Positions 2,403-29,280 of a stretch of 64,000 nucleotides of DNA are shown in pieces (the stretch's first letter is position 1; every line of letters begins with the position of its first letter). A program made the translations under genes and the position numbers. The notes below the pieces were generated by a model. It did no database searches, was not told where the DNA came from, and saw nothing but the letters and a program-made list of their open reading frames with translations. Origin of the DNA: Ruminiclostridium sp. (lineage in GTDB: Bacteria; Bacillota; Clostridia; Oscillospirales; Ruminococcaceae); assembly GCA_045533495.1 (NCBI GenBank), contig JAZSHW010000132.1, forward strand, positions 1,453-65,452, read 5' to 3'.

Positions 2403-2711
2403 CAGACTGAAGACAAACTCACGCACCGCAAAAATGCACAAAATTTTGCAGTAAAATTACAGATATACAAAAATAGCAATAAAAAAGTTTAGGGGAGCCG
2501 AAAACGGCTCCCCTAAAGCATTTTGCTTAGTTTGTCACCCGCCCCTCGACTGTACCTTATGCGAACACTTTGCTGTGCGTCGTCCTGACGCACTTTGTGT
2601 GTTCACTTTACGGCATCCTTGCCGTTTGTACGCCTATCGGGGCGGTTTCCTCCTCTGCGTGCGTTTTTCTTCGTCTGCTCTCGTGTAGCCAAAGTCTTTG
2701 TTTACACGCTG
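2403..2711. mobile_element. 309-bp ORF-less repeat element, copy A (putative non-autonomous insertion)
   Basis: About 92% identical to 7755-8064 by manual alignment. No ORF of 60 aa or more. Bracketed by a target-derived 26-bp duplication. Internal 13-bp stem-loop (2488-2517) and an 87-nt core identical between copies. Confidence 0.6.
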
Positions 2712-7724: not shown

Positions 7725-7754
7725 AAATCCCACATCCTTTCGGATGTGGAATTT
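7725..7754. repeat. Left copy of a 30-bp direct duplication (whole terminator hairpin)
   Basis: aaatcccacatcctttcggatgtggaattt versus 8065-8094; 29 of 30 positions identical. Confidence 0.88.
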
Positions 7755-8064
7755 TAAACTGAAGACAAACTCACGCACCGCAAAAATACACAAAATTTTG
7801 CAGTAAAATTACAGATATACAAAAGTATCAATACAAAAGTTTAGGGGAGCCGTTTTCGGCTCCCCTAAAACATTTTTGCTTACTTCGTCAACCGCCCCTC
7901 AACTGTACCTTATGCGAACACTTTGCTGTGCGTCGTCCTGACGCACTTTGTGTGTTCACTTTACGGCATCCTTGCCGTTTGTACGCCTGTCGGGGCGGTT
8001 TCCTCGTCTGCATGCGTTTTTCTTCGTCTGCCAGCGTGCAGACAAAGACTTTGTCTACACGCTG
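7755..8064. mobile_element. 310-bp ORF-less repeat element, copy B
   Basis: Same orientation as copy A, about 92% identical, with an 87-nt identical core (7902-7988). The near-perfect 16-bp terminal hairpin lies at 8032-8064. Confidence 0.6.
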
Positions 8065-8104
8065 AAATCCCACATCCTTTCGGATGTGGGATTTATCTTT
8101 TTTT
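8065..8104. terminator. Hairpin plus T-run between the rhodanese side and the flotillin operon (right copy of the duplication)
   Basis: 13-bp stem aaatcccacatcc / ggatgtgggattt, then atcttttttt on the plus strand. The matching minus-strand U-run now lies left of the other copy (7723-7727). Confidence 0.6.
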
Positions 8105-12605: not shown

Positions 12606-13257
12606 ATGAACGACACCACAACAAATGAAACAATAAGGTTATCCGAAAACAAGAAAAAAATCACCAAAAACCAAAATCGCCGTTGTAGCAGTAGCCTTAG
12701 CACTTGCCGCAACAGTCGCTACATTGCTATTTGTATTCTTAATGCCACCGCAGAAAACCAATGAGGAAAAGTATAATGATGCGAAATCTGCTTTATCATC
12801 CGGAGATTACGGAAAGGCATATAATCTTTTCAGAGAGACCAAGAGTTATGCCGACTCTTCCGATTTTCTTGAGGATTTTGAAGTAATCTGTGAAAAGAAA
12901 ATTACCACTCTTGATAATTTCAAAACCACAGAAACCTTCAACAAGGACGGTAAGCCTCTTGAAGTAATAACTGAAAAAGACAAGGAAATTACAAAAAAGG
13001 TTTACACCTATGATGAAAACAGCAATCCGCTGTCATATACAGTAACAAAAGACGGTATAGAGCTTGCAGGGTTTGAATGTAGTTACGATAAAGAGAGTGA
13101 TGGTTCAGTAAGTGATGAAGCGGATATCAGCACCGACACCTATACATACGACAGCTACGGCAATCTACTGTCCGAAACCTCTGAATATTCAGACAAAAAA
13201 ACAACGGCACGATACGAATATACAGGAATCACCGTTGTATATAACCCAAAAAAATAA
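12606..13257 (+). pseudogene. Membrane-anchored YD-repeat-like protein, reading frame broken at an A7 tract
   Basis: ATG 12606 (RBS aaggag) reads 18 codons into the A7 run at 12654-12660 and then stops at 12762. A +1 shift gives a TM anchor (KIAVVAVALALAATVATLLFVFL) continuous with the 12724-13257 ORF, which has YTYDxxxN / YTYDSYGNLL motifs. Confidence 0.6.
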
Positions 13258-13932: not shown

Positions 13933-14297
13933 ATGTATAACGCAATTATCAATTTGGTGATAATTACATTATACAAGAATACACGACGAAAAACCACTTA
14001 TCAAAAAGAAAAATTATAATCATATCAGTAATAGTAATTGCTGTAATATCCGTTATAATATCACTTGTTTTTTTACTACCGCTGACAAAAACCGATGAGG
14101 ATAAGTATAATGATGCGAAAACTGCTTTAACATCGGGCGACGATGCAAAAACAACAATCATCACTACCATGTACACCTATGACAGCTATGGTAATATGCT
14201 GTCCTCAAAAGATGTATATAATAATGGTGATATAACAGAATGCATCTTCGAATATATCGGTGTAAAAGTAATCTATCATTCTGATACAAAGGAATAA
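13933..14297 (+). pseudogene. Truncated, frameshifted paralog of 12606-13257
   Basis: ATG 13933 (RBS aaggagaaagg) stops at 14017. The frame entered after a -1 shift in a5-g-a5 (14003-14013) encodes a TM anchor plus TDEDKYNDAKTALTSGD...YTYDSYGNML. This matches both ends of the upstream paralog but lacks roughly 110 internal codons. Confidence 0.55.
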
Positions 14298-28191: not shown

Positions 28192-29280
28192 TTAGTTTTT
28201 CTGGCCAAATTCAAGATTCTCGTGAGAGTCATCCTTCTTTTCGCTCTTTCCTCCGCCTAACTTAAAGAGGATGGAATCGCCAAGGGACTTCTTGGGTTCA
28301 GCAGGCTTTGCTTCTTCCTTCTTAGGTTCTTCAGCAGGCTTTGCCTCTTCCTTCTTAGGTTCAGCAGGCTTTACTTCTTCTTTCTTAGGCTCAGCAGGCT
28401 TTACTTCTTCCTTCTTGGCTTCAGCAGGCTTTGCCTCTTCCTTCTTAGGTTCTTCAGCAGGCTTTGCCTCTTCCTTCTTAGGTTCTGCGGGCTTTGCTTC
28501 TTCCTTCTTAGGTTCTGCGGGCTTTGCTTCTTCCTTCTTAGGTTCTGCGGGCTTTGCTTCTTCCTTCTTGGCTTCAGCAGGCTTCGCTTCTTCCTTCTTA
28601 GCTTCAGCAGGCTTTGCTTCTTCCTTCTTAGGTTCAGCAGGCTTTGCAAAAGCACTGTCCTCAGGCTTTCTCTTTTCAACTTCCTTTACTGTATTTATAA
28701 CGAATTCGTTTTCACACTGTGCAGGGATACCCTTGATATATTCAATATGTGCATTATATGCCGCAAGGATCTTTGCTGTATAATCAGCAACTTCCTTCTT
28801 CGTTCTCTGTAATGCAATCTGTTCTCTTTCTGTACGCTGCTGCATTATAAGATGGATTTCATCAGACTTTGCATTAGCGTCAGCAATGATACCCTTCGCC
28901 TTTTCCTGAGCCGCAGCAACATCCTTGTCGGACTGTTCCTTTTTCTTAGCCGCATCTTCTTTAGCATTATTTATAAGCTTTTCTGCCTTTTCCTTAGCTT
29001 CCTTAAGAAGCTTTTCAGCTTCTTCCTTTGCTTCGTTTTCAATTGCAATAGCCTGTCTTTTTGCAATAAGAAGTGCGTCACGGAGAGCATCCTCATCATT
29101 GCGGTATTCCTTGATCTTTTCAGCTAATATTTCAAGCTTCTTTTCAAGCTCTTCATTTTCATTCTGAAGACCAAGATATTCAACAGATACATCTCTTAAA
29201 AATCTGTCTACCTCTTCTACACTGTAGCCGCCCTTCTTGACGGTGTCAAATCTTTTTCCGACAATATCATTTGCGTTCAC
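28192..29280 (-). CDS. divIVA: DivIVA-domain protein with long Lys/Pro/Ala/Glu decapeptide repeat tail
   Basis: N-terminus (DIVGKRFDTVKKGGYSVEEVDRFL) is the DivIVA lipid-binding motif, followed by a coiled coil and about 11.5 copies of KPAE(P/A)KKEEA. Confidence 0.88.
   Translation of the reverse strand: MNANDIVGKRFDTVKKGGYSVEEVDRFLRDVSVEYLGLQNENEELEKKLEILAEKIKEYRNDEDALRDALLIAKRQAIAIENEAKEEAEKLLKEAKEKAEKLINNAKEDAAKKKEQSDKDVAAAQEKAKGIIADANAKSDEIHLIMQQRTEREQIALQRTKKEVADYTAKILAAYNAHIEYIKGIPAQCENEFVINTVKEVEKRKPEDSAFAKPAEPKKEEAKPAEAKKEEAKPAEAKKEEAKPAEPKKEEAKPAEPKKEEAKPAEPKKEEAKPAEEPKKEEAKPAEAKKEEVKPAEPKKEEVKPAEPKKEEAKPAEEPKKEEAKPAEPKKSLGDSILFKLGGGKSEKKDDSHENLEFGQKN
28288..28644 (-). repeat. In-frame 30/33-bp tandem repeat array inside divIVA
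   Basis: Unit gcaggctttgcttcttccttcttaggttc repeated about 12 times with point variants. Encodes KPAEPKKEEA. Confidence 0.95.

Follow-up and report, generated by a model that had tools for sequence, protein, structure and literature searches.

Structure-dependent transposition is so far known only from two insertion sequences, IS1630 and IS1272. According to secondary accounts, IS1630, an IS30 family member from Mycoplasma fermentans, inserts site-specifically and generates variable duplications of inverted repeats, 16-26 bp in length and different from site to site (PMC2853133, PMC3317919; 19-26 bp according to PMC2853133); the original report is Calcutt 1999, as cited in PMC3317919. IS1272, an IS1182 family member from Staphylococcus, recognises its targets, stem-loops of 21-85 bp that frequently lie just downstream of a gene, as structures, and its authors drew a cruciform model in which the complete stem-loop becomes duplicated when joining takes place at the 5' feet (PMC5678879). 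The variants IS1272L and TnSha1 carry extra tandem copies of the terminal inverted repeat (PMC5678879). No MITE (miniature inverted-repeat transposable element) with a stem-loop duplication turned up in our literature searches, and a 2024 MITE review leaves IS30 and IS1182 unmentioned and describes no stem-loop duplication. Here we describe a repeated element in a 64,000-nucleotide stretch of Ruminiclostridium sp. DNA (GenBank assembly GCA_045533495.1, contig JAZSHW010000132.1, positions 1,453 to 65,452; hereafter the window). We consider it probable that this element is a non-autonomous DNA transposon, a MITE of a superfamily carried by Clostridia of the gut that belong to the [Eubacterium] siraeum / 'Ruminiclostridium' group, whose target duplication is atypical for a MITE in that its length is set by the target hairpin.

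A search of the 64,000 nt revealed only two copies of the element, copy A (2403-2711, 309 nt) and copy B (7755-8064, 310 nt), both on the plus strand and thus in direct orientation, 5.35 kb apart. On alignment the copies are identical at 284 of 310 positions (91.6%), and at 88% outside a run of 87 nt that matches exactly (2549-2635 and 7902-7988). The 26 differences are spread over all four bases and not confined to adenine, and there is no nearby reverse transcriptase gene, so that repeats of a diversity-generating retroelement were rejected as an explanation. The surroundings are those of an ordinary chromosome, and each copy separates two convergent genes, copy A lying between genes for a Cys/Met pyridoxal phosphate (PLP) enzyme and an epimerase, copy B between a rhodanese gene and a flotillin gene. 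The open reading frames (ORFs) over the two copies are short (41-79 amino acids) and not alike between copies, indicating that the element has no coding capacity. The family as a whole has the hallmarks of a MITE: less than 500 bp of non-coding sequence, terminal inverted repeats (TIRs), a flanking duplication of variable length, and many dispersed copies with presence/absence polymorphism.

The flanks of these copies provide a clue to how the element inserts. Copy A is bordered by a 26-nt perfect direct repeat that folds as a hairpin (ACCCGTGAAGATAATTCTTCACGGGT, at 2377-2402 on the left and 2712-2737 on the right), and copy B by a different hairpin, a 30-nt repeat with one mismatch (AAATCCCACATCCTTTCGGATGTGG(A/G)ATTT; left copy AAATCCCACATCCTTTCGGATGTGGAATTT at 7725-7754, right copy at 8065-8094, followed by a terminator T-run). 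Direct repeats of 17-35 nt (up to 37 nt under looser scoring) flank the element at 21 independent sites; the repeat coincides each time with a stem-loop, from foot to foot within one base, while its sequence differs at every site. An A-run before the left copy and a T-run after the right copy stay outside the duplication; a T-rich tail and/or an A-rich lead accompanies 17 of the 21 sites, and the targets are therefore mostly intergenic intrinsic terminators, often bidirectional ones. Apart from a frequent T before the terminal CAG, no constant flanking oligonucleotide was seen. Empty alleles were found for two sites. Locus L100 has a single hairpin (TGACCCCTCCGTTTTCACGGAGGGGTC) where L062 reads hairpin, element, hairpin, and behind the same flotillin gene as in the window L231 and L232 carry one hairpin where L233 and L234 carry a short-form copy joined at the hairpin foot. 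With filled and empty alleles in hand, we conclude that the element is mobile and that the hairpin repeat is its target-site duplication.

The ends of the element are those of a DNA transposon. The left end, conserved in at least 108 copies, has the consensus 5'-CAGNNTG(T/A)(C/A)GA(T/C)AAAC (in fuller form CAGACTG(TC/AA)GA(T/C)AAAC), and the right end is built from the same motif, the outer arm of a right-end palindrome being an inverted copy of it. Copy A, a long-form member of the alpha subfamily, begins with CAGACTGAAGACAAAC, and its left TIR CAGACTGAAGACAAACTCACGCA (2403-2425, plus strand) pairs in folds with a degenerate copy of itself that lies inside the element in inverted orientation (TGCGTGCGTTTTTCTTCGTCTG, 2656-2677, plus strand; reverse complement CAGACGAAGAAAAACGCACGCA, which resembles the left end). 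Since this internal copy stands just before the two inverted TIR-like arms of the palindrome, the right end contains three TIR copies. The palindrome itself is degenerate in copy A (2678-2711); in copy B (8032-8064) it consists of two 16-nt arms with one mismatch. Left TIR and right-end arms co-vary by subfamily, AAGACAAAC going with TAGACAAAG in alpha and TCGATAAAC with TCGAAAAAT in beta.

More than 100 copies were recovered from human and ruminant gut metagenomes and from metagenome-assembled genomes (MAGs) that belong to the [Eubacterium] siraeum / 'Ruminiclostridium' group. Scanning species genomes with a motif gave six loci in Ruminococcaceae / 'Ruminiclostridium' MAGs, several of them in one 'Ruminiclostridium' MAG, and a metagenome scan gave at least 120 loci, mostly from human gut among the matches listed. 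The common form of the element is shorter than that of the window (236-241 nt, about 238 nt in most copies, compared with 309-310 nt). The same TIRs bound other MITE families of approximately 160-440 nt, whose GC-rich interiors are unrelated and which likewise duplicate hairpins. One member of a second family, at 594-769 of L235 (from the 2.25-Mb contig of the [Eubacterium] siraeum-type genome GCA_964261755.1), is 98.9% identical to a copy on the unrelated metagenome contig L034, which suggests recent activity or transfer within the group. The window's own host was placed in the [Eubacterium] siraeum group because a homologue search showed its flotillin to share 100% identity with the protein of a Ruminococcaceae MAG and 91% with the [Eubacterium] siraeum one. 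A phage origin, considered in view of first matches to fecal 'Bacteriophage sp.' contigs, was rejected, as the window is chromosomal, carries housekeeping genes (LysR, CarB, MutS, DivIVA) and matches chromosomes of the [E.] siraeum group. The copy on one such fecal contig is flanked by a third, different hairpin.

Inside its ends the element is a series of nested inverted repeats. In copy A, an invariant 10-bp inverted repeat, P1 (GCAAAAATGC, 2428-2437, plus strand; partner GCATTTTGC at 2518-2526), is followed by H1 (2488-2517), a 13-bp hairpin with a 4-nt loop, AAAA, whose flanking A-run and T-run give it an intrinsic-terminator-like score in both directions, and by P2 (ccgcccc at 2539-2545 with ggggcgg at 2639-2645, plus strand), which encloses P3 (gtac at 2552-2555 with gtac at 2628-2631). 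In copy B, H1 lies at 7840-7869 and has the loop TTTT. Minimum-free-energy folds recover the nested helices, with z scores of -10.4 for the plus-strand RNA, -10.8 for the minus-strand RNA and -8.6 for the DNA. The earlier note on this DNA, which had seen part of this architecture, was right about the 87-nt block and about the unchanged 13-bp stem with its inverted loop (2501-2504 and 7853-7856), now one case of a recurrent flip, and it described the right-end hairpin of both copies correctly. Its helices are all present and reappear in the folds, except that ccgcccc had been placed one base too far left, at 2538-2544. The motif AGACAAA[CG]TC that it reported near both ends in inverted orientation is found on the plus strand at 2411 and 7763, but the inverted copy (8047) exists in copy B only. 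The extent that it gave, 2488-2711, lies in the element without spanning the full copy, and the unit had not been recognised as a transposable element with TIRs and a hairpin-sized target duplication.

To assess covariation, we aligned 41 non-redundant short-form copies over five helices, in which 98.2% of the cells are paired. Thirteen pairs show changes on both sides, compared with 5.3±1.3 in shuffled alignments (0 of 500 reach the observed value) and 2-5 in slid controls. Six of the covarying pairs belong to H1, for which all copies together provide 23 stem variants with compensatory changes, and five to P2 (variants CCGCTCC/GGAGCGG, AAAGCCTCC/GGAGGCTTT and CTGACGCC/GGCGTCAG); the TIR-proximal helix P0 adds two, both from one sequence. 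P1 (GCAAAAATGC:GCATTTTTGC, with 99.8% of cells paired in the 41 representatives) and P3 (CGTAC:GTACG) are almost invariant. G·U cells are rare (8 of 1763), and an attempt to read the transcribed strand from the mismatches was given up because they are too few and their bias (8 GT/TG versus 16 AC/CA) is not significant. The loop of H1 occurs many times in either orientation, with a ratio of A-rich to T-rich loops of about 85:19. Template switching in palindromes (quasipalindrome mutagenesis) is expected to produce two-sided changes that lack wobble intermediates, as well as inverted loops, and co-variation of inverted protein-binding sites would have the same appearance. With scarce G·U pairs, no strand bias and recurrent loop inversions, palindromes at the DNA level fit the data better than an RNA gene.

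The long form differs from the short form by a 69-nt two-hairpin module, the core (2557-2625, plus strand, in copy A; 7910-7978 in copy B), which sits in the apical loop of P3. Its first part consists of gaacac (2563-2568) and gtgttc (2599-2604) around gtgcgtc-gtcct-gacgcac (2575-2593), its second of acggca-tcct-tgccgt (2610-2625). The core is absent from most copies; besides the window, we found it twice in L021 and once in L118, where compensatory changes convert gcgtc/gacgc to gcatc/gatgc and gaacac/gtgttc to gagcac/gtgctc. Identity to copy B in these other long-form copies is 0.90 in the core and 0.85 outside it, 0.88 and 0.85, and 0.81 and 0.73, so the core exceeds the remainder in conservation by a small margin only and is not invariant. 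The earlier note had proposed that the core is under purifying selection as an RNA or a protein-binding DNA structure and had named a core no better conserved than the arms as the outcome that would speak against this; conserved nested helices with compensatory changes across many copies bear out part of the proposal, but the core's small advantage comes close to that outcome, and the 87-nt identity does not reflect general conservation, given that most family members are without the 69-nt core. The identical run has a probability of ~5e-4 under uniform divergence, or ~0.02 when one event each is allowed for the loop flip and for a cluster of 3 nt. Because the core is only slightly better conserved in other long-form copies, a conversion tract or chance is a more likely source of the identity between copies A and B than general purifying selection.

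Modules of the same type but with other stems are inserted in other MITE families, in either orientation. In each, a small hairpin (NGGCAAGGATGCCN) precedes a hairpin of two levels that has CAAAG-type junctions and, at its apex, GC-AGGAC-GC. Related loci totalling 1.12 Mb yielded in a census 71 distinct hairpins with 35 different stems, almost always perfect, whose loops are confined to A[ACT]GGA[TC], AGGAC and ACGA[TC]. The core is one case of this recurrent class, in which the stems of the hairpins vary while the A(N)GGAY loops are conserved. Such hairpins were also seen nested in one another with CAAAG-like junctions between them, in several repeat families and in both orientations (for example at 1284-1597 of L084, 3264-3642 of L027 and 1925-2304 of L145, and in L107, L040 and L026). 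As the earlier note had anticipated, the element could not be assigned to a known non-coding RNA family: an Rfam cmscan over the whole window gave no hits at the gathering score, the best match below threshold being a minus-strand one to CsrC (20.4 bits where the gathering score is 61; E = 5e-4), with noise in the rest of the low-score list. No tRNA was found by a tRNA search, and the neighbouring ORFs are housekeeping genes; the element showed neither a coding nor an RNA-gene signature. The GGA motif and the weak CsrC-like match suggest a CsrA-type protein as a candidate binder of the loops.

Five observations weigh against the interpretation as a MITE, or against the insertion mode that we attach to it. 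An autonomous element or transposase with matching (CAGNNTGTCGAWAAAC-type) ends was not found in ~1.1 Mb of loci, in IMG/VR or in phage and plasmid collections. The TIRs are imperfect, with 12 of 16 positions shared by the left end (CAGACTGTCGATAAAC) and the right end read as its reverse complement (CAGCGTGTCGAAAAAG). Approximately one third of the copies, among the matches listed, either lack the right-end palindrome and a matching right hairpin or have flanks that do not match (for example L130, and L233 with its two flanks from different loci); truncation, recombination between copies and chimeric assembly are all plausible sources of such copies. Compensatory changes distinguish the left hairpin from the right one in L023 and in L025, which a simple staggered cut does not predict. 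Finally, the strong internal covariation, which includes a helix with arms 25-95 nt apart, could equally mean selection on an RNA. The hairpins of L023 (3310-3620) read CCGG/CCGG on one side and CCAG/CTGG on the other, and those of L025 (4620-4925) CCCC..GGGG and CCCCC..GGGGG, each flank being a perfect but different palindrome; such differences may stem from palindrome correction after insertion or from a fold-back step during insertion.

The search for a transposase covered several further sources. None adjoins any copy in the fetched loci, the plasmid collection gave no match, and TIR-based scans of IMG/VR gave only further MITE variants and chance matches. Sequence beyond copies that lack a right end was considered as cargo or as an autonomous version and rejected, since its ORFs are FtsW/RodA-, galactokinase-, HflX-, FeoB- or Upp-like or spurious antisense frames. 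L021, a 3.6-kb contig bounded by inverted copies, was likewise rejected as an autonomous element; it encodes a MarR regulator, a YhhN protein and a 577-amino acid protein, and no transposase. Because no transposase with matching ends was found, the enzyme family can be proposed by analogy only.

We propose that a transposase acting in trans would recognise an extruded hairpin or cruciform by its shape and not by its sequence, that the element ends would be joined at the two feet of the stem-loop, and that gap repair would then duplicate the whole hairpin; the proposal is based on what is reported for IS1630 and on 'pathway b' as drawn in the IS1272 model. The interior is organised as nested inverted repeats, namely the TIR pair, the invariant 10-bp repeat, H1, P2/P3 and the palindrome of two abutted TIR arms, whose perfect Watson-Crick symmetry, concerted two-sided changes and loop inversions are most readily accounted for by template switching within hairpins together with a symmetric mode of recognition by the machinery of transposition. 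Once the element has inserted, the hairpins at its flanks each retain a U-tract on one side only, and for this reason it is probable that H1 restores termination in both directions, for the gene on either side. We consider it rather unlikely, albeit worth stating, that the integration system is structure-guided and sequence-independent, accepts any intrinsic-terminator stem-loop and places a copy of it on either side of the insert, with an enzyme that is no relative of IS30 or IS1182, and that the A(N)GGAY hairpins form a second layer, either as a self-propagating micro-element inserting into hairpin loops or as a protein-binding motif (e.g. a CsrA-type sponge) spread by transposition into 3' untranslated regions.

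An alternative is that the conserved interior, above all the core, encodes a structured small RNA of a mobile element, either a minus-strand RNA that ends at H1 and displays GGA loops (CAAGGAUG, CAGGACG) as a CsrA-like sponge, or a plus-strand RNA whose UCCU loops pair with ribosome-binding sites. The covarying helices and the folding of both strands, far better than that of shuffled sequences, are compatible with this idea, as is the minus strand in particular, where H1 is followed directly by a T-run, both core loops contain GGA and the sub-threshold CsrC match lies; the retention of a few loop sequences across 71 hairpins and 35 stems in the census would also fit. That match, however, scores far under 61 and falls mainly on the terminator, a promoter scan found no conserved sigma-70-type promoter inside the element, and G·U pairs are nearly absent, with wobble-type mismatches showing no significant strand bias. 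Moreover, one and the same element can contain the module in either orientation (e.g. L027), different families have it in opposite orientations relative to the TIRs, and most copies of the family dispense with the core. On this balance we regard a small RNA as unlikely to account for the conservation.

Other features, a structure whose stability is the same for either strand and for DNA, stems that are almost always perfect Watson-Crick duplexes, and variable stems under conserved loops, could instead point to an element moved as single-stranded DNA by an HUH/Y1 enzyme (IS200/IS605-type palindrome-associated or REP/RAYT-like), with the hairpins and loops serving as recognition and cleavage sites. 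HUH nick sites, such as Rep origins, are typically hairpins with variable stems and a conserved loop. IS200/IS605 elements, however, have subterminal hairpins but neither TIRs nor a target duplication and insert 3' of a fixed tetra- or pentanucleotide, whereas the element here has co-varying TIRs, a 17-35 nt duplication and, as noted, no constant flank; REP units are 20-40 nt long with conserved stems, the opposite pattern, and no tnpA or RAYT gene was seen nearby. We therefore hold movement by such an enzyme to be highly improbable. A purely local origin of the two window copies, by segmental duplication or as a conserved regulatory cassette with recent gene conversion producing the identical block, would agree with their spacing of only 5.35 kb and direct orientation and with a contrast between 87 identical nucleotides and 88% identity elsewhere that resembles a conversion tract, but it is hardly tenable in view of more than 100 copies in unrelated contexts and hosts, every one of which is flanked by a hairpin of its own, and of the filled and empty alleles. 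Gene conversion may still explain the identical block if the copies are MITEs, the interpretation that we retain.

The surroundings of the copies yielded further observations. The region downstream of flotillin differs in every close strain (3884-3925 in L229 and L230, 3890-4200 in L231-L234, 7339-8112 in the window): in L229 the hairpin of copy B is cut in its loop and followed by an extra methyltransferase gene, in one close strain the Na/H-exchanger and rhodanese genes are in the opposite orientation relative to flotillin, and in one a MITE joins two different terminators behind flotillin. This region may be a rearrangement hot spot at terminator hairpins, or possibly a set of assembly chimeras. 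Directly to the right of copy A, a GC-rich block (2760-2900; CCCCCTTTCCCCC...GGGGGCTGCCGCCCCTGCGACC...GGGGCCACGCCCC) resembles the interior of the second MITE family (~175 nt), which has the same TIRs and duplicates hairpins elsewhere; the block, which has no recognisable TIRs in the window, is probably a decayed copy of that family. Two modules stand in tandem at 2860-3270 of L133, where a copy without a right palindrome is followed at once by the left end of a second (…CGTCTG|CAGACTG…). Elsewhere in the window, ten tandem copies of a 30-nt unit encoding 10 amino acids (28258-28653) lie inside an ORF on the minus strand (28192-29280) whose N-terminus matches a DivIVA domain, and a pair of 118-nt direct repeats with 72% identity occupies 12698-12815 and 14032-14149, 1.3 kb apart.

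If the interpretation as a MITE with hairpin targets is correct, abundant human-gut Clostridia carry many miniature transposons that choose their sites by DNA shape, that of a terminator stem-loop. Such insertions would be tolerated because they land between genes, duplicate the terminator and bring a spare bidirectional terminator of their own. The elements would also mark rearrangement hot spots, and are probably places at which assemblies of metagenomes break or are joined wrongly. The family offers dozens of natural filled and empty substrates for the study of structure-dependent transposition, and the recurrent GGA-loop hairpin modules pose a separate puzzle beside transposition.

Among RNAs, the sponge RNAs CsrB, CsrC and RsmZ share with the element GGA in hairpin loops and a terminal intrinsic terminator, in addition to the weak cmscan match to CsrC; the hairpins of the element differ from those of CsrB/CsrC in being nested and not tandem, its module has no fixed orientation, no promoter was found, the host belongs to another phylum and the score is far below threshold. 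Among integration systems, Cas1 integrases, in CRISPR spacer integration and in casposons, attack the two borders of a palindromic repeat in a staggered manner and thereby duplicate the repeat. Casposons (PMC5137440) and CRISPR are an analogy only, since their duplication has a fixed length and their target is sequence-specific, and neither a cas1 gene nor a repeat array is present here.

IS1630, as summarised in the papers that cite it, resembles the element in duplicating a target inverted repeat of variable length and sequence and in having TIRs, and it differs in being autonomous, 1.2-1.4 kb long, equipped with an IS30-type transposase and hosted by a mollicute. The element described here measures 238-310 nt, is non-coding, resides in gut Clostridia and makes duplications of up to 35-37 nt. 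IS1272, an autonomous element with a 548-amino acid transposase of the IS1182 family and 16-bp inverted repeats, is likened to it by stem-loop targeting. The extra terminal inverted repeats of IS1272L and TnSha1 recall the three TIR copies at the right end of our element, but IS1272 replaces the stem-loop without duplication (PMC5678879), whereas the element here always keeps two copies. Bacterial MITEs such as Correia, RUP, BOX/SPRITE and ERIC are, like this element, small, non-coding, TIR-bounded, multicopy and intergenic with stable stem-loops, and they also cluster or nest with other repeats (PMC10969869, PMC3049150). The duplications of known MITEs, however, are short and of fixed length (2-10 bp) as set by the transposase, whereas here the length is set by the secondary structure of the target. 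Stem-loop targeting itself has precedents in IS1630 and IS1272; what would be new is a MITE with a structure-defined target duplication.

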